From assembly GCA_963663995.1 (NCBI GenBank), contig OY760660.1, positions 840,001 through 872,000 on the forward strand: a stretch of DNA of 32,000 nt, in the 5' to 3' direction. The DNA comes from Erysipelotrichaceae bacterium. GTDB taxonomy: Bacteria; Bacillota_I; Bacilli_A; Erysipelotrichales; Erysipelotrichaceae. Of this stretch, positions 2,078 through 31,617 are shown piece by piece. The notes beneath the pieces were generated by a model. It was given only the letters and a program-made list of their open reading frames with translations, did no database searches and had not been told where the DNA came from. A program made the translations under genes and the position numbers. Positions within the stretch are counted from its first letter, which is position 1. Each line of letters opens with the position of its first letter.

Positions 2078-3043
2078 TTAACCTCTTGTCTTTACTATGT
2101 ATGAAAATATATTCAGTGTGAAGTCACTCAATGTCTTTAAGTACCATCGATACTTTAGTGGTAATTCTTTTATATAAATATTTGATTTCCATTTAGGAAA
2201 ATGATTCGACATCCACTTAAAGCTTTGACTCATTAGTTGTTTACTGAAGTCTGAACGATAAGCTCTGAAACTTCCATACAACATGAGTTGTTCGATCGCT
2301 ACATATTCTAATTCATTTTTAAATTCATTTTCTAAACCTAATTCTGTAAATTTTTTAATAAGTAAATCTAGGATGGTAAATATTTCAAACATTCTGATAT
2401 TAGATTTAGAACCCATAATTGATTGAGTTCTTTGCATATAATGTACTGCTGTTTTATCTGTGTATGAAAAGTTACTGCATAAGGCAAAGATTGGACATGT
2501 TACAGGAATATCTTCATACCATAAATTTAAGGGATATTCAAAATGATGGCATACGAAGAATTCACGTTTGTATAGTTTGTTCCATGCGAAAAGAGGAGAT
2601 AAAAATAGACGTTTTTTATTTATTTCATTTCCTTGATACCCTTTTAAGATCGTAGATTTATCTGTGTTTTCCCACTCATATTTAACATCACATAAAACTA
2701 AGTTTGATTGATCTTTGACGGCAATTGTATAAAGAATTTCAAAGTGATTAGGGTCAATATAATCATCCCCATCAATAAAACCTAAATAATCTCCTGTACA
2801 AAACTTAACCCCATAATTACGGGCATCACTTAGTCCCCCATTTTGTTTTGTAAATGACTTGAAAATGTGAGGATATCTTAAAACAAAATCGTCTATGATT
2901 GATTGAGATTGATCAGTTGATCCATCATTAACGCACAAAACTTCAATCTGATCTAAAGTTTGTTTGGCTAATGAATCTAAACATTTGAAAAGATACTTTT
3001 CTACATTATAGATTGGAACAACTATGCTCACTTTGATGCTCAT
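2078..3043 (-). CDS. Glycosyltransferase family 2 (soluble)
   Basis: 321 aa with VSIVVPIYNVEKYL, VNDGSTDQS, GGLSDARNYG and IDGDDYID motifs. It is a clear paralog of the GT2 at 22153..23100. ATGA start/stop overlap with the upstream gene at 3040..3043. Confidence 0.85.
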   Translation of the reverse strand: MSIKVSIVVPIYNVEKYLFKCLDSLAKQTLDQIEVLCVNDGSTDQSQSIIDDFVLRYPHIFKSFTKQNGGLSDARNYGVKFCTGDYLGFIDGDDYIDPNHFEILYTIAVKDQSNLVLCDVKYEWENTDKSTILKGYQGNEINKKRLFLSPLFAWNKLYKREFFVCHHFEYPLNLWYEDIPVTCPIFALCSNFSYTDKTAVHYMQRTQSIMGSKSNIRMFEIFTILDLLIKKFTELGLENEFKNELEYVAIEQLMLYGSFRAYRSDFSKQLMSQSFKWMSNHFPKWKSNIYIKELPLKYRWYLKTLSDFTLNIFSYIVKTRG

Positions 3044-5103
3044 TGTGTCACCTTACGTAATCTAAATTCATAATTTTCATAGATGACATCTGTACAATCA
3101 TTGATGGCTTGATCAAAGGGAGCATTTTCCCATATTTCATTTATCACATAATCAATATTATATTTAACTAAGTAAGAACAAGATTTTGTGTAGTCTATAT
3201 CCTCAGGACGCTCTTCCCATCCATACCATAGACGCGCTACTTGATAGAAATCTTGATCTATTCTATCCCACGTTGACCAATACTGTCGAGCTGTAAATAC
3301 TTGATAAACGTCTGGTAAAAATGTTCTTAATCCATCAACTTGAGAAACAACTGTAATTTGATGATCACTCGTAATATCTAAACGTTCATATTCATCCTGA
3401 AAAGCTCTAATCACTTCTAATTCACTATTTTTAATTTTATATAAAGGTAAAACAGTTTTACCTTCGTTGATATAGTAGCCATAGGAAGCACCCGTATCTG
3501 CAAGAACAAAACTTTGATAGTTACTAATAATGACAATAGACACAAATGAAACAACGATAAGACTTCGTAAAGATTTGATGTTCCAAAATCGATTTAAAAG
3601 CAGACCAAATATTAATATTTCAGAGAAAACATTGAACAACGATTCAAAAGCTCGATAATATACATTCGAAGCAAACATTCTTGAAATAAAACTTGTTGTG
3701 AGTGGATTTAAGAAGAATAGTAAGACAAATGCTGATTGCCACAAATAATAGTTAATTTGTTTTTGTTTATTTCGGGTAGCGATAAGAGATAGTAAACCTA
3801 ACCATCTAAAAACATTCAACAAGTTATCCATCCAATTAGAATGAATAAATAAATAATCTTTAACCATGTCATAATTTGCATGATTATTAAAATAGTGATA
3901 AATGCTCCAGATATACTCGGGGTGAGTAATCACATCCCAGATCGAATAAGCAATCGCAATTAATGGTAATATCACTAAAAATATTAATTTTGCATGTTTA
4001 GAAACAGTACTATTTATCGATTTTAAGATATTTTGAAATTTCGTATTAAATAACATTGAATAAAATAAAACACTGAAAAGCACTAATGGTAATAAAAGTG
4101 AGATGTAATCTTTATAAACGATGGCTAAAACATATAAAACCATTGGCAATCCAATAAGCGCTACATACTGAAATGCTTCATCATTTTTACTTAAATATAA
4201 ATAAAAAGTAAAACCAAATAAAATTGCAAAACCAATGAATAAAGAAGATGAAGAAGCCGCAATAGATGCACCAAAAATAATGGATGCGAATGCTAAGTAA
4301 TATTTATTGTTTTCTTTAACATAGAGAAATAAGAAGTACATAAACATTGCCATAAACAATGACCGATAGGTATTACCATAAAAAGAAAAAGCTGTTTTCC
4401 AATAATAAAGATTTGTATAAAATAATGTAAAGAAAAGAATGATGTTATCTAACCAAATTGATTTCCAATTAAACGACTTAACAATATTAACAATTAGCAT
4501 CGCAGATATGAGTGAATATATAGAGCCTAATCCCCACATACTAATCACAATACTATCGATTGTAGACCCAATTGAGAGTAAATTTGAAAAAGAATTTACA
4601 AAAACATTTAGGAATGCTGCAAAATGAAAATAACCTTGAAATAAATAGATAGTTACAAACTCACTTCCCCTTAATCCTGTCCATAAATTAAAATCATTTA
4701 ACTTATCAATGTCAACATTTTGCGCAATATAGTTTAAATACATTTGTCCATCAGCACGAGGGATTGATATCGAGGATTTGTAAAAAATCGTGAGAAATAC
4801 AAGAAAAAAAACGAGAATCCAAAGTGTTTCCCATCTTAAATATTCATAAAAAATATCTTTTATATTTAACAAAGAATAAATAAGAAGCAGCCCATAAATT
4901 ATGGTAGTTATTACATGAATATAATAACTACTTAAGTTGAAGAGTTGTATAGGATAATAAAATAATTGAAGTGAAAATAAAAGAAAAGCAAATCCAAGTG
5001 GTGCACTATAGAGTTGTTTAATACTTGTTTTCTTTGTTAAAAAAGAGCCTAAACCTGTTGAAATAAAAATTGTTATTCCAACAACAAAAAATATTTTAAC
5101 CAT
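3040..5103 (-). CDS. Large polytopic membrane protein with soluble C-terminal domain; possible GT-C-type transferase or polymerase
   Basis: 687 aa. Many hydrophobic helices cover the first ~520 aa, followed by a ~150-aa hydrophilic C-terminal domain. ATG at 5103 overlaps the upstream GT2 stop by 8 nt. I recognise no named family motif; the role is inferred only from pairing with the membrane-anchored GT2 upstream. Confidence 0.55.
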   Translation of the reverse strand: MVKIFFVVGITIFISTGLGSFLTKKTSIKQLYSAPLGFAFLLFSLQLFYYPIQLFNLSSYYIHVITTIIYGLLLIYSLLNIKDIFYEYLRWETLWILVFFLVFLTIFYKSSISIPRADGQMYLNYIAQNVDIDKLNDFNLWTGLRGSEFVTIYLFQGYFHFAAFLNVFVNSFSNLLSIGSTIDSIVISMWGLGSIYSLISAMLIVNIVKSFNWKSIWLDNIILFFTLFYTNLYYWKTAFSFYGNTYRSLFMAMFMYFLFLYVKENNKYYLAFASIIFGASIAASSSSLFIGFAILFGFTFYLYLSKNDEAFQYVALIGLPMVLYVLAIVYKDYISLLLPLVLFSVLFYSMLFNTKFQNILKSINSTVSKHAKLIFLVILPLIAIAYSIWDVITHPEYIWSIYHYFNNHANYDMVKDYLFIHSNWMDNLLNVFRWLGLLSLIATRNKQKQINYYLWQSAFVLLFFLNPLTTSFISRMFASNVYYRAFESLFNVFSEILIFGLLLNRFWNIKSLRSLIVVSFVSIVIISNYQSFVLADTGASYGYYINEGKTVLPLYKIKNSELEVIRAFQDEYERLDITSDHQITVVSQVDGLRTFLPDVYQVFTARQYWSTWDRIDQDFYQVARLWYGWEERPEDIDYTKSCSYLVKYNIDYVINEIWENAPFDQAINDCTDVIYENYEFRLRKVTQ

Positions 5104-6052
5104 TACTTACATCTTCACTTATTCTTATTTTTTCATTTGTCACAAACGATTTTAAAGTTTGTTCATAATTTAGTCTATTATAGTAAGCTAACGAATCCAG
5201 TATTAAAGCTACCATAAAAAACAAAAACGCTACAATTGCTAATCCACTTGCTAAGATTGCTAAAGGTACATGAGTAATATATTGAGTATTAATAAATTCA
5301 ATAATAACAGGCGTTCCAAAGCTCAAAGATAATAATATGAATAAAAAAGAAATAATTCCAAAGAACAACATTGGTCTTGTATGTTTAAACAAGGAAGATA
5401 GAACAGATAAGACTCTTATACCATCTCTCACTGTATTTAGTTTTGAAAAACTACCTTCTGGTCGATCACGGTAGATGATAGGAAATTCTAAAATATTAAA
5501 ACGATAACTCAAGGCAAAAATCGTCATCTCTGTTTCAATTTGAAATCCTTCGCTTAATACTGGAAAGTTTTTAACAAAAAATCGACTAAAAACGCGATAC
5601 CCTGTCATAATGTCATTTAAATTACTTTTAAAAATATTATTCACTAATTGTTGTACGAGATTATTTCCGAAATTATGAAAGTTTCTTTTATTCTCTGAAC
5701 TATATGTTCCATTAGACAATCGATCACCGATTAACATATCAATCTTTTTTGCCTCTACCAGATCAATCATCGCTTGTGCAACTTCAGCAGGATAAGTGTC
5801 ATCTCCGTCTACAAGCACATAAACATCCGCATCAATTTCGCGAAACATTGTACGCACAACATTTCCTTTTCCTTGTTTTGTTTCTTTTCGTACAATCGCT
5901 CCAGCATTTAAAGCTTCTTCAATTGTTCGATCTTTTGAATTATTATCATAAACATAGATATCTGAGTTTGGGAGTGATTTTTTAAAATCTAAAACAACTT
6001 TTTTTATAGTTAATTCTTCGTTATAACATGGTATTAAAACTGCAATTTTCAT
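5096..6052 (-). CDS. GT2 glycosyltransferase with C-terminal TM helices (polyprenyl-phosphate sugar synthase-like)
   Basis: MKIAVLIPCYNEE, YDNNSKDRT, GKGN and VDGDDTY motifs, then two C-terminal hydrophobic helices (FFGIISFLFILLSL, LAILASGLAIVAFLFFMVALIL). I prefer ATG 6052..6050 (AGGAG 5 nt upstream) over the ORF-track ATG at 6070, which has no SD. Confidence 0.8.
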   Translation of the reverse strand: MKIAVLIPCYNEELTIKKVVLDFKKSLPNSDIYVYDNNSKDRTIEEALNAGAIVRKETKQGKGNVVRTMFREIDADVYVLVDGDDTYPAEVAQAMIDLVEAKKIDMLIGDRLSNGTYSSENKRNFHNFGNNLVQQLVNNIFKSNLNDIMTGYRVFSRFFVKNFPVLSEGFQIETEMTIFALSYRFNILEFPIIYRDRPEGSFSKLNTVRDGIRVLSVLSSLFKHTRPMLFFGIISFLFILLSLSFGTPVIIEFINTQYITHVPLAILASGLAIVAFLFFMVALILDSLAYYNRLNYEQTLKSFVTNEKIRISEDVSNG

Positions 6053-6073
6053 AGGTACTCCTGTGTCCATTAA

Positions 6074-6082
6074 ATTTTATCA
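6074..6082 (-). promoter_or_regulatory. Possible extended -10 element (TGATAAAAT) for the 6052 transcription unit
   Basis: The minus strand reads TGATAAAAT, 21 nt upstream of ATG 6052 and just downstream of the hairpin at 6109..6129. No convincing -35. AT-rich DNA produces such matches easily. Confidence 0.3.
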
Positions 6083-6108
6083 TAAGTGTTATTTATATTA
6101 AATAAATT

Positions 6109-6129
6109 AAAAGAGGTTCTACCTCTTTT
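6109..6129 (-). terminator. Rho-independent terminator-like hairpin after the LCP gene
   Basis: Perfect 9-bp inverted repeat aaaagaggt / tct / acctctttt, starting 7 nt after the LCP stop (6136..6138). On the minus strand it is followed by a T-rich tail (ttttaatttattt). This is the only sizeable hairpin I found in an intergenic gap. Confidence 0.55.
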
Positions 6130-6135
6130 AATAAG

Positions 6136-8667
6136 TTATGGAGTAGTTGAAGGTTCTGTAACAGTAGGAGCGACATATTTGTAAACTTCGAATGTAACAA
6201 TAGTATCTTTCCAAACTGTCTTAAGTTTGATAGTACCAGCAACAACGTTTTGTGATTTGATAACCCCATCTTTAGTTTGGTCAGCTATTTCGACTTCTAT
6301 ATAATTACAAATCAATATATTTGTAGAACATAAGTCAGTATCTACAACTGTTTTAAGTTTATCTTTATAATCTAATAATTTATAACCTTCACCATAAACC
6401 TGTACAGCTAAATTTTCCTTAACTTTAATTTTTGACTCTGCAATAGGAACAGTTTTCACTACTGTATTGAGTAGAATTGAATCAAGCGTTGGTACATAGG
6501 TAACGACGATATTATTCTTAGAATACATATTTTCTTCAACCCAAGATTTTGCTTCTTCTAGTGTCCAAGTAAGCATATTAGGTACAATTACTGAATAATT
6601 ACTATCCATAATCGTTAAGTTAAGTGAATCTAAGTTTCTCACATCAGTCCATTCAACAGGAGATTGATCATATACATAACCAATAAAGCTCTTATCAAAA
6701 CGTACATCTGTTTCAGGAATAACAGTGTAAGTTAATTTCACATTATAGTTGTTTGCCCAATCAATGACTTTACTGATAAGTGTTTTTGTTGTAGTGAAAT
6801 CGGGTAGTTTATAGTAACATTCATCATATTTCATATTGTCGCTTATATTACAGTCAAGATCATGTTTTATAACTTTTAATGACAAATTTGAAAAGTTACT
6901 AGTTTTAATACCATATCTAACACTTTGTCCAACAATGTAATTATGTTCAACATCAGATGTATATAATGCGTTCCCAGATTTAATTTCTTCTACAGAAAGT
7001 GTAATCCCTCGTGTTGATGCCCATTCTCTTGCCTTCTCTAGAGTCCAATCGTTATAACTCATCGTTGGCATGTAATCCGGAAGTACTTCATGAATTTCTT
7101 TTTCATCATATGTTCTTGAAAAATAGTCTTCTCTGTATAAAACCAAAGATGCATTAAACTGAACTGATAATTCATCAGTAATATTAGTTGGTTGTGCTAA
7201 ATTTGATTCCATTAAACTTCTTAAATCAGCTATTGATCCTTCATAAGGTTTCATTATCCATAACGGTAATTGTAGTTCTTCGTTATAGAAATAATCAGAA
7301 TATCCTAATACTCTTGAACCAGTAGTTAACAAAATTGAATCAGTTGTTAATCCTGTTTTATTCATAGTCCTTAATAATAAATTAAAGATATCAATCATTT
7401 GACTTAATGGCATGTTTGTTTGGACATTTGCACCTGCAGCATCTAAAACTTCAATGGCTCTATTTATATCTTTCAATTCTAAAGTTCTTTGTATTATTGA
7501 CTGAATAACTGCTTGTTGGTTGACTTGTCTAGTATAATCACCATTTGGCATATGATATCTCTCACGAGCTAAAGCTAAAGCCTGTTCACCTGTAGCCCAA
7601 AAACCACCTTCTGGTACCCAAACTGTATAAGTTCCACGCTGATCATCAGAGTTTTGACCAACAAATTCAACTGGTGAAGTTAACCACACTTTATCCAGAG
7701 CATCTACAATATCCACAACCCCTTGAAAATTAACCGTTAAATAATAATCAATATCAATACCAAATAAATTTGAAACAGTATCAACCGCACATTCTTTACT
7801 TACTGCATAAGCGTGACCTAATTTATCCTTTTCTTGATTGGGATAACATGCAATAGGTACATAACTATCACGAGCAATACTAGTCATAGTAATTGATAGC
7901 GTTACAGGATTAAACGTTGTTAAAATCATACTATCTGAACGTCCACCATCTGTTCCAAACACCAAAATGGTAAATGGATCTTTTGTAACATCTAAATCAG
8001 AACTTTCATTAATTACTTCGTATGTATAGTTAAAGGTATAAACAGTATTTGTCTCTTCTAAAAACGTATTATACCCTTCATAATCTCCATATTGTTTTTG
8101 ATAATCTGCTGGTAATACCGCTATATCAATATCATTGTTAAAAAGACCAAGTAACATTTCATTGTAAGAAATATATTCAACATAACTTACATTAAGTCCC
8201 AAATCTATAATTTCATTCTTAACATATGCATTTCGATCATTTTCATCAGTGTTTGATAAAACACCAAACTTTGCATTATTTAAATCTTCAACAGAAGTCC
8301 AATCATTATGTTGGTAGGATGCAAAAGCAGTTTCAACTGTTGTTTGTTGGTTTCTGTCAACAATAACTTGATTAATACTTGCATTAATTCTAATAAGGTA
8401 ATAATTCCCAAATAATGACATTACTAGAAGAATGGACATAAGAATATATCCACCAATCCACAATAGTTTTCGTTTCAGGATATTACCTTCGATGATTAAA
8501 ATGGCTGAACCAATAACTAATAAGTACAATATAAAAAACAATGAAGCATATATTGTTATATTTAATTTACTATAACTGACGCTTTGAATTAATAAAAATG
8601 TCAAGCTAATAAATGAGAATATGATTGCTGTTAAAGCTGTATAATTTTTTACGGTTTTTTTAAACAT
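6136..8667 (-). CDS. LytR-CpsA-Psr (LCP) family glycopolymer-peptidoglycan ligase with C-terminal PASTA-like repeats
   Basis: 843 aa with N-terminal TM helices. LCP core: FTILVFGTDGGRSDSMILTTFNP, SIARDSYVPI, GHAYA, TVNFQGVVDIVDAL, ARERYHMPNGDYTRQVNQQAV. The C-terminal ~310 aa holds 3-4 repeats of PASTA-like pattern. RBS AGGGAG lies 8 nt upstream of ATG 8667. Confidence 0.85.
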   Translation of the reverse strand: MFKKTVKNYTALTAIIFSFISLTFLLIQSVSYSKLNITIYASLFFILYLLVIGSAILIIEGNILKRKLLWIGGYILMSILLVMSLFGNYYLIRINASINQVIVDRNQQTTVETAFASYQHNDWTSVEDLNNAKFGVLSNTDENDRNAYVKNEIIDLGLNVSYVEYISYNEMLLGLFNNDIDIAVLPADYQKQYGDYEGYNTFLEETNTVYTFNYTYEVINESSDLDVTKDPFTILVFGTDGGRSDSMILTTFNPVTLSITMTSIARDSYVPIACYPNQEKDKLGHAYAVSKECAVDTVSNLFGIDIDYYLTVNFQGVVDIVDALDKVWLTSPVEFVGQNSDDQRGTYTVWVPEGGFWATGEQALALARERYHMPNGDYTRQVNQQAVIQSIIQRTLELKDINRAIEVLDAAGANVQTNMPLSQMIDIFNLLLRTMNKTGLTTDSILLTTGSRVLGYSDYFYNEELQLPLWIMKPYEGSIADLRSLMESNLAQPTNITDELSVQFNASLVLYREDYFSRTYDEKEIHEVLPDYMPTMSYNDWTLEKAREWASTRGITLSVEEIKSGNALYTSDVEHNYIVGQSVRYGIKTSNFSNLSLKVIKHDLDCNISDNMKYDECYYKLPDFTTTKTLISKVIDWANNYNVKLTYTVIPETDVRFDKSFIGYVYDQSPVEWTDVRNLDSLNLTIMDSNYSVIVPNMLTWTLEEAKSWVEENMYSKNNIVVTYVPTLDSILLNTVVKTVPIAESKIKVKENLAVQVYGEGYKLLDYKDKLKTVVDTDLCSTNILICNYIEVEIADQTKDGVIKSQNVVAGTIKLKTVWKDTIVTFEVYKYVAPTVTEPSTTP

Positions 8668-8678
8668 ATTATTACTCC

Positions 8679-9329
8679 CTAATAAAATCTAACAACTTCA
8701 ATACGACCATCTTCGCGTTCTATTAAAGTAATAGCGGCTGAATTTGGGAATAATGTTGTATCAATAATTTCACTTTCTTTATATGTCCAAGATAACTCAA
8801 TATAAAAACTCAAATATGATGTTCCATAATAATCATAATCAACACTATAAGAAGCTATTGAATCAGAAACTGTTTCAACTTCAACCAAATCTGTTAAAGC
8901 GATATTAGTATTTATATAGTCATACATTTTATTGTAATAATAAAGGCGAGATGAAAAGTAAAAGTTAGTACCTTCTTCAGGCATGATAAATTCACTACCA
9001 CCTATATCGTATACCCCTGCTTTATTACTCCAAGTATAATAATCTGCAACAAAACTTTTTGCGACTAACTCAGCTATGACTAGTCTTTGGGGATTATCAC
9101 TTTCAATTTCTGAGGTTAATTTGTCAAATAAATCTCTCTCTAAAGAAGTTGGATTACCTTTTAATGAATAATAATCATTAGAATTAATGACTTGCTCTGC
9201 TTCAGATGAACTATTAGACATAATCCCGAAAACAAAAATAAATATGCCTAAAAAGAGTGTAACAATAAATACTATTAGGCCATAATATAATTTTCGATTA
9301 CGATGAAATCCTTTTATAAATTTTTCCAT
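8679..9329 (-). CDS. Hypothetical membrane-anchored extracytoplasmic protein
   Basis: 216 aa with a single N-terminal TM (YYGLIVFIVTLFLGIFIFVFGI) followed by a Tyr/Ser-rich soluble domain. No family recognised. It lies between a YfhO gene and the LCP gene in the same operon. Confidence 0.6.
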   Translation of the reverse strand: MEKFIKGFHRNRKLYYGLIVFIVTLFLGIFIFVFGIMSNSSSEAEQVINSNDYYSLKGNPTSLERDLFDKLTSEIESDNPQRLVIAELVAKSFVADYYTWSNKAGVYDIGGSEFIMPEEGTNFYFSSRLYYYNKMYDYINTNIALTDLVEVETVSDSIASYSVDYDYYGTSYLSFYIELSWTYKESEIIDTTLFPNSAAITLIEREDGRIEVVRFY

Positions 9330-9369
9330 TTTTTACCGCGTCAGATAATAATTAGAGTAGATTTATATT

Positions 9370-11946: not shown

Positions 11947-11947
11947 T

Positions 11948-12886
11948 CTATTTATTCTTTAATTGTTCTATAGAATCATAAACATATGGTTTGTTTACAG
12001 TTCGTTCTCTTAATAACATATCTAAATATTTTAAAATCATTGAAAGAACTAGAAATAATCCCGAGAAACTAATCGTTAAAAACATCATGGAAGTCGTCCA
12101 ACCACTCGCAATATTTTTTACAACTAGATATGATCCAATGACAAATGCAATCATTAATATTGAGAAGACAAAAAACAACATGGATAGACCTATAGAAATT
12201 GTTGATGCGATATGTGAATAACGAATCATAATCTCATAACCTAAATTAAATTTTTTAGTAAAACTCAATTGATTATAATCTGTTTTAAATGTGGGTTGAT
12301 AGAACTCAACAGTGCTAGGTAAACCAGAATAATGATATGACGCTTTTCGATAATTGATATTTGTGTTTAAAATACCAACTCTATTAATCGCTCTTCTTGA
12401 TAAGATTCTTGCTGTTTCAGTGTACAATTTCATATTTCGAGGAGATGAAATTTCGAGTAAACGATAGAACACTTTATTAAAAAATGATGGTTTAACATTG
12501 GGGGATAATGCCACGATATCAAACCCAGTTAAACTTTTTTTATAGATGTCAATTAAAAGTGAAACATCATAATCTATACTTAAAGTATCAAATTCAAATA
12601 TATAATCACCAATCGCTACTTTTTGGCCTGATACCATTGCTAATTCTAAACCGTGAAAATATGATAGGTTTAAAATTGTAATAGGTGCATGAAACTTGTC
12701 TTGAATTGCTTTTACTTTATCAATTGATTTATCTTGAGAAAAATCATTTATTAAAATAATTTCAAAATTCGTGAAATTTTCAGTAAACATTTCATCGATT
12801 TCAAGTAAATTCTTTTCAATAAAACTTTCATCATTGTGAACATATATAACCAGAGAAATATAGTTCTTTTCTTTTTGTACGTACAT
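11948..12886 (-). CDS. Divergent GtrB/CsbB-like GT2 with C-terminal TM hairpin; catalytic motifs degenerate
   Basis: 312 aa, colinear with the GtrB-like proteins (GT2 domain plus two C-terminal TMs plus a terminal KPYVY box). However NDGS is replaced by NDFS, SRNFGKE by SYFHGLE, and DADLQDPP by FDTLSIDYD. RBS AAGGAG lies 5-6 nt upstream of ATG 12886. Confidence 0.7.
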   Translation of the reverse strand: MYVQKEKNYISLVIYVHNDESFIEKNLLEIDEMFTENFTNFEIILINDFSQDKSIDKVKAIQDKFHAPITILNLSYFHGLELAMVSGQKVAIGDYIFEFDTLSIDYDVSLLIDIYKKSLTGFDIVALSPNVKPSFFNKVFYRLLEISSPRNMKLYTETARILSRRAINRVGILNTNINYRKASYHYSGLPSTVEFYQPTFKTDYNQLSFTKKFNLGYEIMIRYSHIASTISIGLSMLFFVFSILMIAFVIGSYLVVKNIASGWTTSMMFLTISFSGLFLVLSMILKYLDMLLRERTVNKPYVYDSIEQLKNK

Positions 12887-12894
12887 AGGGCTCC

Positions 12895-19600: not shown

Positions 19601-20652
19601 AATACTAAAAGAATTATCATAATGCTATAAAATATTCTATTTATTAGTTTATTTTCTTTATCAAAGATACTTTGTCCTAACATTAATGCTGTGAAAGATC
19701 CGCTAAATAACATAAGTTCACGTGTTTGATAAGTTATAGATTCATAAATAGACGTATATTGTTCAATTCCATTATTATTAACAATTTGACTGATAAAAGT
19801 CGAACTAGGGACAAAATGTGCAATTAACAAATGAAAATATACTCTTATATCCTCAAAATAAAAATGTGAATTTGTTGAATTAAACAATCTTGAATTTTGT
19901 AATAATAATAAGACACCAGGTACTATAAGAATAGCTGATAACAAAAAACCAAGTAAATATAAAGCAATTAAAGGAAATGCACTTTTTAAATATTGCTTTC
20001 TATGTTCTTCAAAAAATCGATAAGTATAATAAATTAGTGTAAAAATCGACAATGTATAAAACAAATAAAAATTCATAATCAACATTAAAGCAGTCATTAT
20101 GGCATAAAAAAAGTAAACTTTCTTTTTCATAGCCAATTCTAAACTTGCAAAATATAAAGGTACGAAGCTATAAAAACTTAAATATATTGGAACTTCTACA
20201 TATTTTAATGCCCAAGCAGAAAAAGTAAACAATAGAGCACCAAGAATTCTTGTATATTTATCCCAGTTTCTAACTCTTCCATAGATGTAAAAAGAAAGAG
20301 CAGCTGAAATAAATTTTAAAACGCTCAATATCATCACTATATTGTAGTAATGATTATTTATAAGAATTCCTAAATAGCTATATATATCTCCAAAAATGTA
20401 ATATGACTTAGCCGCTAAAAAATTATTCCCAAAAAACATATTCCAAGACCAAAAGGGAAAAGTTTTTTGTTTTATAGCATTTACGATTAAACGTCTAAAC
20501 TCAATAAAAAATAAACGATATTGTGTTCTTGAGTCAAACCCAATAACAAAAGCTTTACCCTCAATAATATAAGGTACCATTATGAAAGCAGTAATTAATA
20601 TTACAAAACTAATTAAAATTAATATTGGAAAGTATTTCTTTATTAATTTCAT
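16675..20652 (-). CDS. Fusion of two GT-C-like membrane modules: N-terminal YfhO-family plus C-terminal COG5617/PTPS-related-like
   Basis: Continuous ORF. ORF-track residues 1-777 form a complete YfhO: multi-TM region, extracytoplasmic domain, VTSIAFDKGWKVTVNNESVPIYAVNGGFVGFPINAGDNTIKMYF, final TM, basic tail. Residues 778-1331 begin MKFFKIKRN..GIPSGHDLIYHFSRIV..GYGYPVNLFYPLGLFYIP and form a second multi-TM protein with its own extracytoplasmic domain and terminal TM. The ORF-track start at 20670 is TTG. I prefer ATG 20652..20650, which has GGAAGGA upstream and shares one base with the upstream TGA (TGATG). Confidence 0.8.
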   Translation of the reverse strand: MKLIKKYFPILILISFVILITAFIMVPYIIEGKAFVIGFDSRTQYRLFFIEFRRLIVNAIKQKTFPFWSWNMFFGNNFLAAKSYYIFGDIYSYLGILINNHYYNIVMILSVLKFISAALSFYIYGRVRNWDKYTRILGALLFTFSAWALKYVEVPIYLSFYSFVPLYFASLELAMKKKVYFFYAIMTALMLIMNFYLFYTLSIFTLIYYTYRFFEEHRKQYLKSAFPLIALYLLGFLLSAILIVPGVLLLLQNSRLFNSTNSHFYFEDIRVYFHLLIAHFVPSSTFISQIVNNNGIEQYTSIYESITYQTRELMLFSGSFTALMLGQSIFDKENKLINRIFYSIMIILLVFPIGGSFMHGLSEHSFRWTLFLIFLNIVLAMKYFNKIEFIDLKILKKTSLIISLLIFLNIPVLSMILNVNPFNNTFQWIVFIITIIFIWVIYFVLFKDNKNKKTWIIIISVVEIIFASYLTFNMNPNYKKLDWDFVNKSETVLGKTPDQLNQYLQELDGDYGYYRIYAPYDSIYWYSSLNMNLLYNYSDVKTYDSTYQYSVDNLSKLISLDRGFGWTWNITNPDIIDFASVKYSIVTSESELPHSNFILIGDFYGLPLYLNNQYRPIANSYNFVISYDDYVKNPDISLINQTIIADENDVEIIKTYLSDASSASIKNVEKYQNLLLGDIYSEDRNFVVTSIAFDKGWKVTVNNESVPIYAVNGGFVGFPINAGDNTIKMYFMPEGFKLGAITTFIGFILLIFLIFFEVRKFFKHKNKQQNLMKFFKIKRNLISLTLIPIVFIFPMLLKGIPSGHDLIYHFSRIVGSFELLRSNISELKILPGFYYGYGYPVNLFYPLGLFYIPVYLMDFGLSLILSYKIFAVIITLLTALSMYWTSKYLFKSSSAALLASFLYTFSVYRNYTDFFERAALGEWVAFIFVPLVFLGLYKIINDEKPRAYLLAFSMSGLILTHTITTIVMVIILFIFALFNYKILIHSLNKIKQILFAIFITLGLTAFYWLPLLEMMFSDTFQYQTPWTNLHEHVINNIFQLVFISPQLAVFPNGIEWYLFLIPIIGLIFRFKSIIKNQVLLFSFIISLATLFIVSNVIPINWISFLNFIQFPFRLYFVLTFFLSILTAYFINEIVIEKGKWIQVLTLVLISVQYLYMTNYYYNVKMIGYWYDNFPRYSIEYYYAEFLPESADMDNLAQNASNKVINASNPIEISYSNNQLNYVVDFNQGAYINTQLELPLLYYKGYGAFYDDNGKYILLKTTKDSKSLLNVDLGDIKEGRLYIFYNGTLIQKISGYLSAIFVGLISVIFGLKSFEKIKGNRRFKKV

Positions 20653-22145
20653 CAATATGATTCCTTCCAATAAAAGATAACATCTGTGTCCATTGGAATA
20701 TTATTATAAATTTTAAAGGCTTCCATGTGATAGCTATCTTCTTCTTCGATATCACCAGCATGTATGGTATAGATAGGATAGCGAGGTAACCAAATGCCTG
20801 TTGTATACTGATCTGAATATAGATGATAATCATCTAGTATCATTTCACGTTCATGATAAATATTGGCTACAGCATTATATTTGATATAAAAGGTACGCAC
20901 ATCTATAAATGACATAACAATTAAAATTACGATCATTCCATTTTTTATTAGCCTATTAATTTCTATGATTTCCAAAATTAATACAAAACTTATAAACATA
21001 TAAAATACAGCATATAAAATTAAGCGAGAACCAATAACTGGTGACATCAAAAGGCTTGCACTACTTAAACTTGCAATGCCCATAAATATAATTAAATACG
21101 GTTGTTTTAATTTATAAATATTTAAACGTATTATCTGACTCAAAAGTAAAACAATATAAAGAACCCAAAACAACATTGACCACCACTGTGTCACATCAAA
21201 TAAACGAGCAGTTTGGGGTAAATATTGTATTAATCTTGTGTTTAATAAATATATTATCGCTATTCCATAAACCAGAATACTCATTACAAATTCAATTTTT
21301 GAGAAAGTCTTATAACTTACATAGATTAATAGGCAAGATAGAGAAAAAATAATGACTTTATTTTGAATGAATACATAATTTATAATTTGAGGTAAATTTC
21401 TAAGTACTTTTTCAAAAATGCTTAATGTTTGCCATTCAGGCATAGTAGCTAATCGGATATTTGATCCAGGACTTAAATACCATATGACAAAGGCAATTCC
21501 ATAAAAAATAATCGAAACAATTAGTATCGGATGAACTTTTTTTTGTTTATAAAAATCATAAACAATTAAACTTAAAACCACAAATCCAATAGCTATACTT
21601 ATATTTTCCATACCTAATGGTAGATAAAAAGATGTAAATGCAACTAGGATATAAGAAATCCAATTTTCTTTACCTTTAAATAGTGAATTTGTTATTGTGA
21701 ATAATAATACTATAGATAACCATAAGGGTATTCCATAATAGATAGAACCTGTTATCCAAGTATAGGTTTCCATACGAATATTATCTTTTATAGATACTAT
21801 AAAGAAAAATAAAAATAATAATGATAATTTTTGATTCTCTTTTTTAATAAATGAAGATAACAAATAAAATGTATTGGCAAAAATAAATGCATTTAATAGA
21901 TTCCATATTTCTTTATATTGAATCAGTGTATGCATAGAAAACAGGGTCATTAAACGACCTTCCCAGTGAAAATACATACCAATAGCAGCATCTACAACAT
22001 TAGATTTGACGACGTTGTTATGGAATGCCCAATCATCTCCTGACAAAGGTGTTTTATAGGAAATATAATAAAACAAACAAAAAACAATAGATGTCATCAT
22101 TAATCTAAAACGATTATCTTTTACATATTTGATTATTTCACCCAT
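20652..22145 (-). CDS. Polytopic membrane protein, GT-C-like (acidic DD motif in first external loop)
   Basis: 497 aa, hydrophobic throughout. The first loop after TM1 reads KTPLSGDDWAFHN, placing a DD pair where GT-C enzymes carry catalytic Asp residues. The same feature occurs in the 451-aa protein at 24159 (GFIDDNAY). GAGGG RBS lies 5 nt upstream of ATG 22145. Confidence 0.6.
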   Translation of the reverse strand: MGEIIKYVKDNRFRLMMTSIVFCLFYYISYKTPLSGDDWAFHNNVVKSNVVDAAIGMYFHWEGRLMTLFSMHTLIQYKEIWNLLNAFIFANTFYLLSSFIKKENQKLSLLFLFFFIVSIKDNIRMETYTWITGSIYYGIPLWLSIVLLFTITNSLFKGKENWISYILVAFTSFYLPLGMENISIAIGFVVLSLIVYDFYKQKKVHPILIVSIIFYGIAFVIWYLSPGSNIRLATMPEWQTLSIFEKVLRNLPQIINYVFIQNKVIIFSLSCLLIYVSYKTFSKIEFVMSILVYGIAIIYLLNTRLIQYLPQTARLFDVTQWWSMLFWVLYIVLLLSQIIRLNIYKLKQPYLIIFMGIASLSSASLLMSPVIGSRLILYAVFYMFISFVLILEIIEINRLIKNGMIVILIVMSFIDVRTFYIKYNAVANIYHEREMILDDYHLYSDQYTTGIWLPRYPIYTIHAGDIEEEDSYHMEAFKIYNNIPMDTDVIFYWKESY

Positions 22146-22152
22146 ATTACCC

Positions 22153-23100
22153 TCAAAATAAAATTGCCAATATTAAGTTTAATTTATATTTAATTAAATT
22201 AAAAATAATTTTTTGTTTAATTGAATAAGTTCTTAATAATTCAGCTTTAAACCAATGTGGTACACGTTGTCTGATTTCTAAATTATTTCTTTTATAATAT
22301 GTATATTTATCTTGGAAAGAATCTGATTCTTTTATACGTAAAGTTGTTGCAATTAAACCATGCGTAATAATGTATTTCTGATAAACAGTCTCCCATTTTT
22401 CATCATCAATACCTTTTCCTCTGAAATAACTATCTAAAGAATCAATAGCTGAATAGATATCAAATATTTTAGGATTAATTTGATGAGCTATAGAAGTACT
22501 TCGTTGAACATAAAAATAAAAGGCTTCATTTATATAACTTATTTTTTTAGCATTATATACAACCTTAGGAATTGTTTCTAAATCTTCATACCATTTCCCT
22601 TTAGGAAATCTAACATCTTGAAACAATGAAGTTTTATATATTTTATTGCATGCACTGTTATTTATTAGTAATAAATCTAATGGATTAGAAACATCAAAGT
22701 TCCCAGCACTTGAATATTTCTCTTCATCATTATCGAATACGTATTTCATGTCACAACAAACAATATCGCTCTTTTCAGTTTCACAAAGATCCATCATTCT
22801 TCTAAACATTGTTGTATCAATATAATCATCTGAATCGATAAAAGCTAAATATTCACCTTGTGCATGATCAATTCCAAAGTTACGCGCATCACTGAGTCCG
22901 CCATTAACTTTTTTAAGCACTTTAACTTTTGACTGATTTTCATGTTTTAAAGAACAAGCAATATCAATCGATTTATCCAATGAGCCATCATCCACTAGTA
23001 ATATTTCGAAATTATCAAAGTCTTGATTTAATAAACTGACCATGCATTTCTCAATATAATTTTCTACGTTGTAGACAGGTACAATAACACTTAATTTCAT
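22153..23100 (-). CDS. Glycosyltransferase family 2 (soluble)
   Basis: MKLSVIVPVYNVENYI, VDDGSLDKS, GGLSDARNFG and IDSDDYID motifs; paralog of 2078..3043. The ORF-track start at 23124 is GTG and would lie inside the putative promoter. ATG 23100 gives the canonical GT2 N-terminus. Confidence 0.85.
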   Translation of the reverse strand: MKLSVIVPVYNVENYIEKCMVSLLNQDFDNFEILLVDDGSLDKSIDIACSLKHENQSKVKVLKKVNGGLSDARNFGIDHAQGEYLAFIDSDDYIDTTMFRRMMDLCETEKSDIVCCDMKYVFDNDEEKYSSAGNFDVSNPLDLLLINNSACNKIYKTSLFQDVRFPKGKWYEDLETIPKVVYNAKKISYINEAFYFYVQRSTSIAHQINPKIFDIYSAIDSLDSYFRGKGIDDEKWETVYQKYIITHGLIATTLRIKESDSFQDKYTYYKRNNLEIRQRVPHWFKAELLRTYSIKQKIIFNLIKYKLNLILAILF

Positions 23101-23189
23101 CCTTGCTATTATAACATGAACCACTATTTAGACTTGACTTGGTTTCTAGGAATAATAATTTGATGCTATAATTCTATAAGGTAAAAAAT
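23101..23189. promoter_or_regulatory. Divergent promoter region with two opposed extended -10 elements
   Basis: This is the only strand switch of divergent type in the window. The plus strand has TGCTATAAT at 23164..23172, 17 nt before ATG 23190 (AAGG RBS at 23178..23181). The minus strand has TGTTATAAT (complement of 23108..23116), only 7 nt before ATG 23100. No good -35 is present on either side. Confidence 0.45.
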
Positions 23190-24119
23190 ATGAAAAAATT
23201 GTCTATTATAGTTCCATGTTATAACGAGGAAAAAGCACTACCTCATTTTATTGACGCAGTCATTAATGAAAGTAATAAAGTTGATTATCATTTTGAATAT
23301 ATCTTTGTAAATGATGGCTCAAAAGATAAAACACTGAATGTTCTAAAAAAATTAAAAGAAGAAAATAATAATTTAGATATTCAAATTATCGATTTTAGTC
23401 GTAATTTTGGTAAAGAAGCTGGAATATTAGCTGGGTTAAGCGAATCTACTGGTGATTTAGTTGTCATTATGGATGCCGATATGCAAGATCCCCCAGCATT
23501 ATTACCTGAAATGTTAAAACGAATAATTGTGGAAGATATTGATAGTGTCGCCACTTATCGTGTCACACGTACTGGTGAACCAAAAATCAGAAGTTATTTT
23601 GCAAGGAAATTTTATCAACTCATAAACAAAATAAGTGAAGTCGATATTGTAGACGGATCACGTGATTATCGTATGATGACACGTACAATGGTCGATGCCA
23701 TACTTTCTTTAACTGAATATCATCGATTCTCTAAAGGCATCTTTGTTTGGGTTGGATTTAAAACTGATTATCTAGAGTTTGAAAATGTTGAGCGTATAGC
23801 TGGTGAAACTAAATGGTCTTTTTGGAAATTATTTAAATATGCCATTGAAGGCATAGTTGCTTTTACTACTTTCCCATTAAGAATATCTACATTTGTCGGT
23901 TTTATATTTTCATTAATTGCTTTCATCTATATGATTTTTGTTATTGTAAAAGCATTCTTGTTTGGTGATCCAGTTGCTGGGTACCCATCAATGATGGCTA
24001 TTATCCTATTCTTAGGCGGTATTCAACTTCTTTCATTTGGCATTCTTGGCGAATATTTGGCAAAAACATACATGGAAGTCAAACATAGACCTAATTATGT
24101 AGTACGTAAAAGATATTAG
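23190..24119 (+). CDS. Polyprenyl-phosphate sugar synthase, GtrB/CsbB-type GT2
   Basis: 309 aa with LSIIVPCYNEE, VNDGSKDKT, SRNFGKE and DADMQDPP motifs, two C-terminal TMs, and GEYLAKTYMEVKHRPNYVV. Confidence 0.9.
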   Translation: MKKLSIIVPCYNEEKALPHFIDAVINESNKVDYHFEYIFVNDGSKDKTLNVLKKLKEENNNLDIQIIDFSRNFGKEAGILAGLSESTGDLVVIMDADMQDPPALLPEMLKRIIVEDIDSVATYRVTRTGEPKIRSYFARKFYQLINKISEVDIVDGSRDYRMMTRTMVDAILSLTEYHRFSKGIFVWVGFKTDYLEFENVERIAGETKWSFWKLFKYAIEGIVAFTTFPLRISTFVGFIFSLIAFIYMIFVIVKAFLFGDPVAGYPSMMAIILFLGGIQLLSFGILGEYLAKTYMEVKHRPNYVVRKRY

Positions 24120-24158
24120 TTTAATCATTTTATTCATTTAAACATTAAGGGTTAATTT

Positions 24159-25514
24159 ATGAAAAAAAATAGAATTTTAAATATGATAACTATTAATAAA
24201 GAGAAACTTCCTTTGGTTTTTCTTATAACTAGTTTAATAACACTTTACTCTACTGCAAAACTAGGATTTATTGATGATAATGCATATCTTTCATTAATTG
24301 GGAATCGTTCTTTTGTTGAATTTATAAAATACAATTATGACACTTGGTCATCAAGAATTTTTGGAGCATCACTACATGTACTTATATCACCACATCATTG
24401 GATGTGGTTTATTCTGAATATTGTTGTTTGGGTAATATTGTATTACTCGTTAGATAAAATAATAAATGATTCAAAATCAGTTTATGTAAAATGGGCTATT
24501 GTATTATCATTGCTCTCATATCGTCACTACTATATGGCTTCCGCTGGATGGATAGGAACGACAATAAATTATAGTTGGCCTTTAGCTTTAGGAGTTTTTT
24601 CATTAATTCCTTTTACAAAAATTTTAAGAAACATAAAAATAACTTCTTGGGAATGGTTCTTATTTTATCTTGCACTCTTATTTGCATCAAATTTTGAACA
24701 AATGACATTAATATTAGGTGTTTTATATTTTACTTTTTGGATATATCAGTTATTAAAAAAAGAATCTCACTGGCCAATCTTCATAGGTGGTATCCTAATC
24801 GGAATAAATGTGTTACTGATTGTTTTTAGTCAAGGTAATTTTTCTAGAAGAGTTGCAGAAGTAGATAGATGGTTTCCAGAATATTCTACACTAAGTAATT
24901 TCAGATTAATTGATTTGGGGTTCTCTTCTTCACTCTATCCAGTATATTTTAAACCAGATGTTATTTATTTGCTATTTGCTTTAATATTGGCGCTATTAAT
25001 TTACAAAAAAGACGGATCTATTAAAAATACTATTATCTCTTTTATTCCATTTTCCATAATGATTATATTTGGCATTTTTAACGATAATATAAACAATTTA
25101 TTTCCAACGATTGAATATATTAATAATTCGCTAACTGATATTGGTACTGGTATGAGTTTCACATCTGCTATTAGTTTTATTCCTAATATCATTTTATTAA
25201 TAGCACTAGTTTCATCTATTTATACTATATATGTAGGTTTTGGTAATAGTAACAAATCCTTATTTTTAGTATTGATATTTGTTCTTGGCTTATTAAGTCG
25301 AATGATTATGGCACTTTCACCGACAATATGGGCTTCTGTTGATAGAACATTTATATTTATGCAATTTTCATTTGTAATAGTTGGATTGTTTGCTTTTAAT
25401 GAGCTGATAATTCTAAATTCAATTAATAAGAGAGTATTTACATACATATCATTCATAGTCTTTGTATTAACATTTATTGATAATTTTTATAATATGACTT
25501 TCTTTTTTAGATAG
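24159..25514 (+). CDS. Polytopic membrane protein, GT-C-like partner of the 23190 synthase
   Basis: 451 aa, hydrophobic throughout, with first-loop motif AKLGFIDDNAYLS. AAGGG RBS lies 9 nt upstream of ATG 24159. It follows a GtrB-like gene after a 39-nt gap. Confidence 0.6.
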   Translation: MKKNRILNMITINKEKLPLVFLITSLITLYSTAKLGFIDDNAYLSLIGNRSFVEFIKYNYDTWSSRIFGASLHVLISPHHWMWFILNIVVWVILYYSLDKIINDSKSVYVKWAIVLSLLSYRHYYMASAGWIGTTINYSWPLALGVFSLIPFTKILRNIKITSWEWFLFYLALLFASNFEQMTLILGVLYFTFWIYQLLKKESHWPIFIGGILIGINVLLIVFSQGNFSRRVAEVDRWFPEYSTLSNFRLIDLGFSSSLYPVYFKPDVIYLLFALILALLIYKKDGSIKNTIISFIPFSIMIIFGIFNDNINNLFPTIEYINNSLTDIGTGMSFTSAISFIPNIILLIALVSSIYTIYVGFGNSNKSLFLVLIFVLGLLSRMIMALSPTIWASVDRTFIFMQFSFVIVGLFAFNELIILNSINKRVFTYISFIVFVLTFIDNFYNMTFFFR

Positions 25515-28012: not shown

Positions 28013-28062
28013 TATCTTATTCTATCGAATCCAATTTTTTTATTCAACTTTATAAGTGAAAT

Positions 28063-28992
28063 TTAAAAATTTATTCTTTTCTCTTCTATTACAAGTGGAC
28101 GGTTCATAATTCGTTGATTAATACTAATAATGTACTCACCAATTATTCCTAAAAAAACAAGTGTTACTGAATTAAACAAAAACAAACCAATGATAATTGG
28201 CGCAAATCCAGCTGTAAAAGTATCCCAATACATAAGCTTTAAGAAGAGATAAATCATTGCAATTCCTAGGCTTATAATTGCTCCGCTAAATCCAATAAAT
28301 GATGCTATCCTTAATCCAATTTTAGTATAAGAAACAAAACCTATCATGGCTGCATCATATAGTTTAAAAAAATTATTACTGGATTTACCTGCTCTTCTCT
28401 TTGCCTGCAAAAAATCAATTTTTTTAATTTTAAATCCTAATTCACTAACTATACCTCTGAAATACGGTTGAGGGTCCTTTAAATCCCGTAACACTTGTAT
28501 AAAATCTTTATCATATAGTCCAAATCCAGTGAAATGTTCAATTTGTTCGACATCTGATGCATATTTAATTAATTTATAAAAAAGTGTTCTAAGAAAGTGC
28601 AATACTGGATTTACTAAACTTTTACTCTTAATTCCAATTACAATTTTATTGCCAGCTTCCCATTCTTTTATAAAGTCTGGGATTCTTTCCAATGGATCTT
28701 GAAAATCTGCAGACATTGTTATAACACAATCACCTGATGTCTGTAATAAACCATAATAAGGTGAATTAAATTGGCCAAAATTTCTTGCATTAAATATTGC
28801 TTTTATATTTGGGTTTTTATTGCATATATTTTCAAGCAAAGCTTGTGTCTTATCTATAGAATGGTTATCTATAAATATTATTTCATAAGTATATTTCTCG
28901 AAAGACTTAAGAATTTTACTTAATTCTTGTGCCATCAATTCAATATTCTCTTCTTCATTATATGTTGGAATTAATATACTAATTTTTTTCAT
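28063..28992 (-). CDS. Polyprenyl-phosphate sugar synthase, GtrB/ArnC-type GT2
   Basis: 309 aa with ISILIPTYNEEENI, IDNHSIDKT, ARNFGQ and SADFQDPL motifs, two C-terminal TMs, and GEYIISINQRIMNRPLVI. ATGA overlap with the upstream epimerase at 28989..28992. Confidence 0.85.
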   Translation of the reverse strand: MKKISILIPTYNEEENIELMAQELSKILKSFEKYTYEIIFIDNHSIDKTQALLENICNKNPNIKAIFNARNFGQFNSPYYGLLQTSGDCVITMSADFQDPLERIPDFIKEWEAGNKIVIGIKSKSLVNPVLHFLRTLFYKLIKYASDVEQIEHFTGFGLYDKDFIQVLRDLKDPQPYFRGIVSELGFKIKKIDFLQAKRRAGKSSNNFFKLYDAAMIGFVSYTKIGLRIASFIGFSGAIISLGIAMIYLFLKLMYWDTFTAGFAPIIIGLFLFNSVTLVFLGIIGEYIISINQRIMNRPLVIEEKRINF

Positions 28993-29897: not shown

Positions 29898-29900
29898 TTC

Positions 29901-31616: not shown

Positions 31617-31617
31617 T

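Follow-up and report, generated by a model that had tools for sequence, protein, structure and literature searches.

The window analysed here, a 32,000-nt stretch of an Erysipelotrichaceae bacterium (assembly GCA_963663995.1, contig OY760660.1, positions 840,001-872,000 of the forward strand), carries an unusually dense array of glycosyltransferase genes in which GT2 enzymes stand beside large polytopic membrane proteins. Five membrane-anchored GT2s and seven predicted GT-C modules (three YfhO, one YfhO-like, two GtrC/STM0557-type and one DUF6077-like) lie within ~26 kb. We consider it likely that this region is the variable, decoration-rich part of a rhamnose-containing wall-polysaccharide locus, whose product would be attached by a LytR-CpsA-Psr (LCP) protein and whose flippase would come from outside the window. 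What is new is the density of the array; the mechanism itself would be ordinary, of the known multi-component transmembrane glycosylation type.

The window has a G+C content of ~28% and is coding nearly throughout; most genes lie on the minus strand, and neighbours overlap or are separated by short gaps. Every open reading frame (ORF) of at least 80 amino acids (aa) was scanned with Pfam and NCBIfam. A sequence-only reading of the same stretch had described six adjacent pairs of a GT2 gene and a polytopic membrane protein, and all six are present as ORFs, each GT2 matching Glycos_transf_2 (Table 1); for three genes the start given (6052, 20652 and 23100) is an in-frame ATG inside a longer ORF (5096-6070, 16675-20670 and 22153-23124, respectively). 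Two further GT2 genes lie beyond the pairs, at 2078-3043 and, partially, at 1-684, and three of the GT2s in the window are soluble Leloir-type enzymes. The anchored GT2s share 22-37% identity with one another and the YfhO proteins 26-27%, which rules out recent tandem duplication: because identity is so low, the paralogs appear to be old and functionally diverged and not the result of recent amplification, and their divergence implies distinct specificities. The pairing is not due to chance, because the adjacencies of anchored GT2 and DUF6077-like gene, of anchored GT2 and YfhO, and of GT2 and DUF6056 gene recur in related contigs. These nearest relatives, with ~45-75% protein identity to the window, comprise Logan contigs as well as metagenome assemblies of Erysipelotrichaceae (individual ones carry L numbers below).

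Table 1 Features of the window in order of position, with strand and the evidence for each assignment (TM, transmembrane segment; bit scores are from Pfam).
Feature	Coordinates	Strand	Evidence and remarks
Soluble GT2, N-terminal part, running past the left window edge	1-684	-	Frame translation; Glycos_transf_2 100 bits
rmlC	689-1228	-	dTDP_sugar_isom 235 bits
rmlD	1230-2075	-	RmlD_sub_bind 275 bits
Soluble Leloir-type GT2, no TM	2078-3043	-	116 bits; beside the DUF6077-like gene in relatives too
GT-C-fold glycosyltransferase, 687 aa, rare DUF6077-like family, invariant Asp118 motif	3040-5103	-	Predicted structure
Anchored GT2, AglJ/dolichyl-phosphate-hexose-synthase-like, DGDD motif	5096-6052	-	66 bits; two C-terminal TM
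Promoter-like site after the hairpin	6101-6074	-	
Terminator-like 12-bp hairpin directly after the LCP stop codon	6132-6106	-	
LCP glycopolymer-peptidoglycan ligase, 843 aa, C-terminal PASTA-like region	6136-8667	-	Three N-terminal TM
216-aa single-TM protein directly upstream of the LCP gene	8679-9329	-	No family match
YfhO-family GT-C, 858 aa	9370-11946	-	PF09586 194 bits; ~12 TM plus C-terminal TM
Anchored GT2, degenerate catalytic motifs	11948-12886	-	Glycos_transf_2 only 37 bits
FAD-dependent oxidoreductase	12895-14013	-	Weak Pfam match
Xylose-isomerase-like TIM barrel	14006-14824	-	Pfam
Divergent epimerase-like protein of the short-chain dehydrogenase/reductase (SDR) type	14821-15756	-	Weak Pfam match
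Anchored GT2, canonical GtrB/CsbB/ArnC-type, DADLQDP motif	15749-16678	-	110 bits; two TM
Second GT-C module of the 1325-aa ORF, 554 aa, distantly YfhO/PMT_2/PTPS_related-like, GHDxxYH motif	16675-18339	-	
YfhO module of the 1325-aa ORF	18340-20652	-	YfhO 227 bits (1325-aa ORF)
GtrC/STM0557-type GT-C (DUF6056), invariant GDD at residues 36-38	20652-22145	-	PF19528 103 bits
Soluble Leloir-type GT2, no TM hairpin	22153-23100	-	120 bits
Anchored GT2, canonical GtrB/PgfS-like, DADMQDP motif, divergently transcribed	23190-24119	+	110 bits
Divergent GtrC/STM0557-type GT-C, 451 aa	24159-25514	+	PF19528 24.7 bits, under the cut-off of 27
YfhO-family GT-C, 841 aa	25487-28012	-	PF09586 189 bits
Anchored GT2, GtrB-type, SADFQDP variant motif	28063-28992	-	81 bits; two TM
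NAD-dependent sugar epimerase/dehydratase directly upstream of GT2 28063, same direction	28989-29897	-	Epimerase 104 bits

Membrane anchors of the GT2s were called by a hydropathy scan, which agrees with the earlier claim that five of the six paired enzymes end in a two-TM hairpin; none is found in the sixth, 22153-23124. The anchored GT2s align over their full length to the NCBIfam PgfS and ArnC models. Two of them, 15749 and 23190, have the canonical DXD-type motif; 28063 has a variant (SAD..Q), 5096 a motif of DGDD type, and in 11948 the motif is lost. From sequence the catalytic motifs appear plausible in four of the five. NCBIfam scores remain under the cut-offs throughout: 23190-24119, whose ortholog in L008 is 77% identical, reaches 320 bits with PgfS (cut-off 500), 15749-16678 reaches 221 bits with PgfS and 144 bits with ArnC, and 28063-28992 reaches 169 bits with PgfS. 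The AglJ-like enzyme 5096-6052 (222 bits, cut-off 325) is 70-74% identical to its counterparts in relatives, where the DUF6077-like gene is always adjacent, and is predicted to be a polyprenyl-phosphate sugar synthase paired with 3040-5103.

Two of the paired GT2s depart from this pattern. In the alignment, 11948-12886 reads FDTLSIDY where its paralogs have MDADLQDP, so that the canonical DXD/Q is gone, and the NEE and SRNFGK motifs are missing as well; its ortholog in L005 (2203-3141) has lost the same motifs. The protein is nevertheless among the best conserved of the locus (70-76% identity to relatives); it may act as a partner without catalytic activity or as an enzyme whose chemistry has changed. 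Genes of this type always lie directly upstream of a YfhO gene. The second, 22153-23100, matches ordinary Leloir transferases best (PRK10073, TuaG, PglI), with 143 bits and under the cut-off for PRK10073, and its adjacency to a DUF6056 gene is kept in L007 and L008. This enzyme need not be a lipid-sugar synthase.

All membrane partners look like GT-C glycosyltransferases, a prediction drawn from family matches and structural models. Pfam (gathering thresholds 28.5 bits for YfhO, PF09586, and 27 bits for PF19528) agrees with the sequence-only reading that three partners are YfhO proteins and three are not; that count holds for proteins but not for modules, since the 1325-aa partner holds two. 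In the family of the 20652-22145 protein the columns G36-D37-D38 are invariant, and its AlphaFold model (mean predicted local distance difference test, pLDDT, 93.4) has high-probability Foldseek matches only to GT-C enzymes (STT3, ArnT, AglB, DPY19, Pmt1/4 and AftB), with weak E-values. Its divergent relative at 24159-25514 aligns to the DUF6056 profile in hhalign with a probability of 97% and an E-value of 6e-11, its DD motif being aligned to GDD. Precomputed labels show that PF19528, formerly DUF6056, is named 'GT_STM0557_N' in a newer Pfam release; STM0557-0559 is the Salmonella gtr operon for O-antigen glucosylation (PMC3688519).

The third non-YfhO partner, the 687-aa protein 3040-5103, has no Pfam match even at E 10. 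A Foldseek search of the PDB with its AlphaFold model (mean pLDDT 92.9, built on 40 homologs) gives significant matches to GT-C enzymes only, DPY19 leading with 1.6e-6, followed by AglB, STT3, AftA and ArnT. In hhalign the DUF6056 profile aligns to the profile of this family with an E-value of 2.8e-5, placing GDD opposite the invariant D118. Because these profile alignments link the DUF6056 and 687-aa families, all three non-YfhO partners appear to be related GT-C proteins. Homologs of the 687-aa protein at 33-43% identity carry the precomputed label PF19554 (DUF6077), and since the protein has no PF19554 match of its own we call it DUF6077-like and not a member. The family is rare, with 189 cluster representatives at E <=0.001 among 1.84 billion. 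Its named matches are few and come from Erysipelotrichaceae and Solobacterium, and L008 holds a second DUF6077-like paralog that is 24% identical. PDB sequence searches with the DUF6077-like and DUF6056 profiles returned nothing meaningful. A Wzy, Wzx or EpsG identity of the non-YfhO partners was rejected on both family and fold: Pfam gives no Wzx/Wzy-type match for any window protein, and among the Foldseek matches listed for the two models there is no Wzx/MOP or Wzy structure, the transporter probability being <=0.13. Their assignment to GT-C by the sequence-only reading is thereby upheld.

The 1325-aa ORF (16675-20652, minus strand) consists of two GT-C genes joined in frame at ~18339-18366. 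Scanned alone, its 554-aa second module matches YfhO at 36 bits, PMT_2 at E 9e-4 and PTPS_related at E 0.011. A genuine, conserved two-module GT-C fusion was rejected, because the homologs are all separate genes: all 27 of 27 close homologs are 732-771 aa long and cover 55-58% of the query, and in L008 the counterparts are two genes, one for a 771-aa YfhO and after it one of 546 aa, whose product shares 45% identity with the C-terminal part of the fusion. The difference comes down to one A within an A5 run (~18356-18360): without it the sequence encodes a 770-aa YfhO, and the TAA stop of this gene shares bases with the ATG that follows (TAATG). The fusion may thus have arisen through a genuine +1 mutation, or it may reflect a homopolymer sequencing error. 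The latter is a live possibility because a second gene of the window, a 3-dehydroquinate-synthase-like gene at 29901-31020, is split at a T8 run (~30465-30475; break at ~30461-30477), its N- and C-terminal ORFs lying in different frames; this split gene could be a pseudogene, a phase-variable site or an assembly error.

Comparison with the relatives reveals a conserved core surrounded by shuffled modules. The core runs from an anchored GT2 through the SDR-like protein, TIM barrel, FAD oxidoreductase, degenerate GT2 and YfhO to a 215-aa protein, the LCP-PASTA protein, an anchored GT2 and the DUF6077-like GT-C, and ends in GT2, rmlD, rmlC and GT2, the last of these (330-339 aa) occupying the position of the partial GT2 at 1-684. 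Upstream of the core the modules vary among the relatives (five related contigs). L007 has an Arn-like set there (2960-8942) comprising an anchored GT2, two EamA/SMR-like proteins of 113 and 114 aa, an acetyltransferase, a DegT aminotransferase and a YfhO; the EamA/SMR-like pair is a candidate ArnE/F-like flippase judging by its sequence, and the set, which the window does not have, suggests amino-sugar decoration. In L008 the upstream part reads Wzy, GT2, Wzx and second DUF6077-like protein, followed by a GT2/DUF6056/YfhO/546-aa string. Wzx-type and Wzy/O-antigen-ligase-like genes thus occur in related loci, including L008 (1-2957). L006 has a strong Wzx-type gene (4193-5650, 98 bits) between YfhO and a 214-aa protein, and in L005 a weak Wzx-type gene, an O-antigen-ligase-like gene, an LtaS-like sulfatase and a GT2 (15474-20557) follow right after the rmlC-GT2 unit, starting directly past the GT2 equivalent to the left-edge ORF of the window. 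Because relatives carry them too, multi-GT-C arrays appear to be typical of the wall-polysaccharide locus of this lineage; in the literature our search turned up no work on such arrays in Erysipelotrichaceae. The suggestion of a combinatorial decoration island, made from the sequence of the window, fits both the age of the paralogs and this shuffling around a conserved core.

Several neighbouring genes suggest a link between the pairs and polysaccharide assembly. The products of rmlC and rmlD belong to dTDP-L-rhamnose synthesis. The LCP protein matches Pfam LytR_cpsA_psr (123 bits) and PASTA (33 bits), its matches to the NCBIfam CpsA/TagU/LytR models being under the cut-offs. It is unusually long and ends in a short Thr/Ser/Pro-rich tail (APTVTEPSTTP), which resembles the type of segment that is O-glycosylated in streptococcal LytR. 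Placing the end of the main operon at this gene, as had been proposed, is reasonable because a terminator-like hairpin and a promoter-like site follow it directly. The 216-aa protein upstream has no Pfam, NCBIfam or PDB match and is kept at the same position in L001, L003, L005, L006 and L007.

The FAD oxidoreductase, TIM barrel and SDR-like protein (12895-15756) form a trio that is kept between two anchored GT2 genes in L001, L003, L005 and L007, the FAD enzyme (74% identical) ranking with the degenerate GT2 among the best conserved proteins of the locus. Matches of the trio to NCBIfam keto-sugar epimerases are weak, and PDB sequence searches with the FAD oxidoreductase and the SDR-like protein gave no match; for the FAD protein a UDP-galactopyranose mutase identity was rejected, as no GLF domain was matched. 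From their sequences these are candidate sugar-remodelling enzymes that could oxidise, epimerise and reduce a sugar donor. As auxiliary epimerases acting on undecaprenyl-phosphate sugars have precedent (PMC11127046), the conserved trio is a plausible donor-remodelling unit. A further set of genes lies upstream of GT2 28063 on the same strand (28989-32000) and includes the NAD epimerase, the split 3-dehydroquinate-synthase-like gene, an SDR and a C-terminal fragment of a thiamine-pyrophosphate enzyme. Together these genes may make up a route to an unusual sugar or cyclitol used by the GT2 28063 pair.

Among all ORFs of at least 40 aa in the window there is no GtrA, Wzx or small (4-TM) multi-TM protein, as the sequence-only reading had stated, and the genes are so tightly packed that no intergenic room is left for a hidden flippase gene. 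That reading stressed the missing flippase, an emphasis that the literature does not bear out. In Bacillus subtilis the csbB-yfhO, ykoT-ykoS and ykcC-ykcB pairs are adjacent and gtcA lies far away, with similar arrangements in Staphylococcus aureus and Listeria (PMC8035078, Table 1); in Lactococcus lactis three GT-A/GT-C pairs are served by one CflA encoded elsewhere (PMC8035078). A review of rhamnose-containing cell-wall polysaccharides agrees that the flippase is unlinked (PMC9574508), and for the SccN/SccM and SccP/SccQ pairs of the Streptococcus mutans SCC locus it is 'currently unidentified' (PMC11754754). Since the flippase is unlinked, shared or unidentified in these model systems, the absence of its gene beside the pairs is the rule and is to be expected, and the locus opens no new route to the flippase question. 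The candidate flippases in the locus of the relatives are Wzx-type (Polysacc_synt) or paired EamA/SMR-like, and by comparison with them a Wzx-type gene plausibly lies immediately outside the left edge of the window.

Of the characterised systems, the multi-component systems of Firmicutes (CsbB-GtcA-YfhO; CsdAB, CsdCD and CsdEF with CflA) resemble the window in that an anchored GT2 stands beside a polytopic GT-C, YfhO included; there the flippase gene is unlinked and common to the pairs, and the targets are wall or lipoteichoic polymers (PMC8035078, PMC9574508). Their model genomes carry two or three scattered pairs, which agrees with the earlier estimate of one to a few pairs in well-studied genomes and contrasts with the five anchored GT2s and seven GT-C modules gathered here. 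The GtrC/STM0557-like and DUF6077-like GT-Cs are not among the characterised Gram-positive examples. Region 2 of the S. mutans SCC locus likewise belongs to a rhamnose-polysaccharide locus with multiple GT-A/GT-C pairs, each adding a different side-chain linkage (PMC11754754); it has two pairs, however, with genes for an ABC-exported polyrhamnose backbone alongside, whereas in the window the pairs are more numerous and genes for a backbone or for export are missing, and its relatives suggest a Wzx/Wzy-type route. Among the hallmarks of rhamnose wall-polysaccharide loci (Rgp/Gac/Epa/cwps), the window contains rmlC, rmlD and the LCP gene; it has no rmlA/B, priming enzyme or exporter.

In the GtrABC systems of Salmonella and Shigella, STM0557-0559 included, a GtrB-type GT2 works with a serotype-specific GtrC. 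The window shares GT2s of this type and has two partners in the STM0557-named family, but gtrA lies beside gtrB in those systems, whereas the organism here is Gram-positive and its window has no gtrA and includes an LCP ligase. The Pgf system of S. mutans and the streptococcal GtrB/PgtC2 system also combine a PgfS/GtrB-like anchored GT2 with a YfhO-family GT-C. The four-gene pgf operon nevertheless differs from the polysaccharide locus here, whose proteins score far under the Pgf equivalog cut-offs. In the pentofuranose systems of Citrobacter youngae O1/O2 and the mycobacterial decaprenylphosphoryl-arabinose (DPA)/arabinan pathway, lipid-phosphate donors and GT-Cs are accompanied by auxiliary epimerases (PMC11127046), which the trio, lying between an anchored GT2 and a GT2/YfhO pair, may parallel. 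Those systems, by contrast, use a polyprenyl-phosphoribose synthase dependent on phosphoribosyl pyrophosphate and a MATE or SMR flippase, neither of which is in the window, and their epimerases belong to enzyme families other than those of the trio.

From the gene content, the family and fold assignments, the membrane anchors, the conserved adjacency and the absence of a flippase gene from the window, we infer a lipid carrier, sugars, an acceptor polymer, a direction of transfer and an outside flippase that would act together as follows. At the cytoplasmic face the anchored GT2s of GtrB/CsbB/ArnC type, four of which have seemingly usable catalytic motifs, would move single sugars from nucleotide sugars to undecaprenyl phosphate, some donors having first been remodelled by the products of adjacent epimerase or oxidoreductase genes. 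The lipid-linked sugars would then be flipped by a protein encoded outside the window, which may be a shared GtrA/GtcA-type, a Wzx-type or a paired EamA/SMR-type flippase. Outside the membrane, the seven GT-C modules would transfer the sugars onto a wall glycopolymer, which the LCP-PASTA protein would join to peptidoglycan. The individual GT-Cs probably differ in the linkage or acceptor site that they determine, and the set of modules varies between related strains. The wall-polysaccharide context is indicated by rmlCD, the LCP ligase and, in relatives, the Wzx and Wzy-like genes, all of which lie with the pairs, and there is precedent in adjacent GT-A/GT-C pairs that decorate lipoteichoic acid (LTA), wall teichoic acid and rhamnopolysaccharides with a flippase that is unlinked or unknown (PMC8035078, PMC9574508, PMC11754754).

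Several points weigh against this interpretation. Canonical pairs number four at most, since GT2 11948 has no metal-binding DXD/Q motif and the partner GT2 22153 is a soluble Leloir-type enzyme. Because the window contains no priming phosphoglycosyltransferase, ABC exporter, Wzx or Wzy, it does not define the acceptor polymer. Nor can the acceptor be read from family membership alone, because YfhO-family enzymes such as PgtC2 and those of Pgf glycosylate proteins too; the family can act on proteins or LTA instead of a wall polysaccharide (PMC8035078).

Given the last point, the YfhO/GT2 pairs, all or only some of them, could instead serve protein glycosylation, with Ser/Thr-rich extracytoplasmic stretches of membrane proteins, adhesins or S-layer proteins as targets. 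In NCBIfam the anchored GT2s and YfhO proteins match PgfS, PgfM1 and PgfM2 best, and the Pgf operon of S. mutans modifies surface adhesins (PMC5856776); in Streptococcus pyogenes and Streptococcus pneumoniae the YfhO-family PgtC2, together with GtrB, glucosylates Ser/Thr-rich regions of PrsA, PBP1a, PknB and LytR (PMC12041528). The top fold matches of the 687-aa protein, DPY19, AglB and STT3, are protein glycosyltransferases, and the LCP protein itself offers a short Thr/Ser/Pro-rich C-terminal tail. The Pgf scores, however, fall far under the equivalog cut-offs (PgfS at best 320 against 500, PgfM1 and PgfM2 <=73 against 1400 and 1500), the window holds no obvious glycoprotein substrate gene, and the pairs have rmlCD and the LCP ligase as neighbours, joined in relatives by genes of Wzx and Wzy-like type. 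We therefore give protein glycosylation only a small chance. LTA or a membrane glycolipid is an even less probable target of one or more pairs. CsbB/YfhO modifies LTA in B. subtilis and S. aureus, as does CsdEF in L. lactis (PMC8035078), and one related locus contains an LtaS-like sulfatase-family gene; the window, however, has no LtaS-type gene, and its operon links the pairs to the LCP ligase and the rml genes.

The sequence-only reading had also raised the possibility that the glycan is largely polymerised outside the membrane, by successive GT-Cs using undecaprenyl-phosphate monosaccharides in the manner of mycobacterial arabinan. This would suit seven GT-C modules set against only three soluble Leloir-type GT2s, fold matches that include AftA, AftB and AftD, and a window in which ABC exporter, Wzx, Wzy and priming transferase are all missing. 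Yet the locus of the relatives has Wzx-type and Wzy/O-antigen-ligase-like genes and more soluble GT2s, pointing to conventional repeat-unit assembly; the number and type of GT-Cs vary among relatives, as befits side-chain decoration and not a backbone; and where such GT2/GT-C pairs have been characterised in Firmicutes, they attach single sugars (PMC8035078). Polymerisation outside the membrane is thus unlikely. We hold it similarly doubtful that the locus is an arabinan-like relay of GT-Cs in a Firmicute, with the degenerate GT2 and the trio making an unusual lipid-linked donor and an unrecognised type of flippase at work. Decoration of an LCP-attached, rhamnose-containing wall polysaccharide remains the interpretation that we favour.

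With seven GT-C modules from four sequence families in one locus, the window shows how far GT2/GT-C decoration can multiply in a gut-associated lineage with a little-studied cell envelope. Two poorly known families, the rare DUF6077-like proteins and the Gram-positive branch of GtrC/STM0557, gain assignments at the level of fold, and the conserved set formed by the degenerate GT2 and the redox enzymes may produce an unusual lipid-linked sugar.

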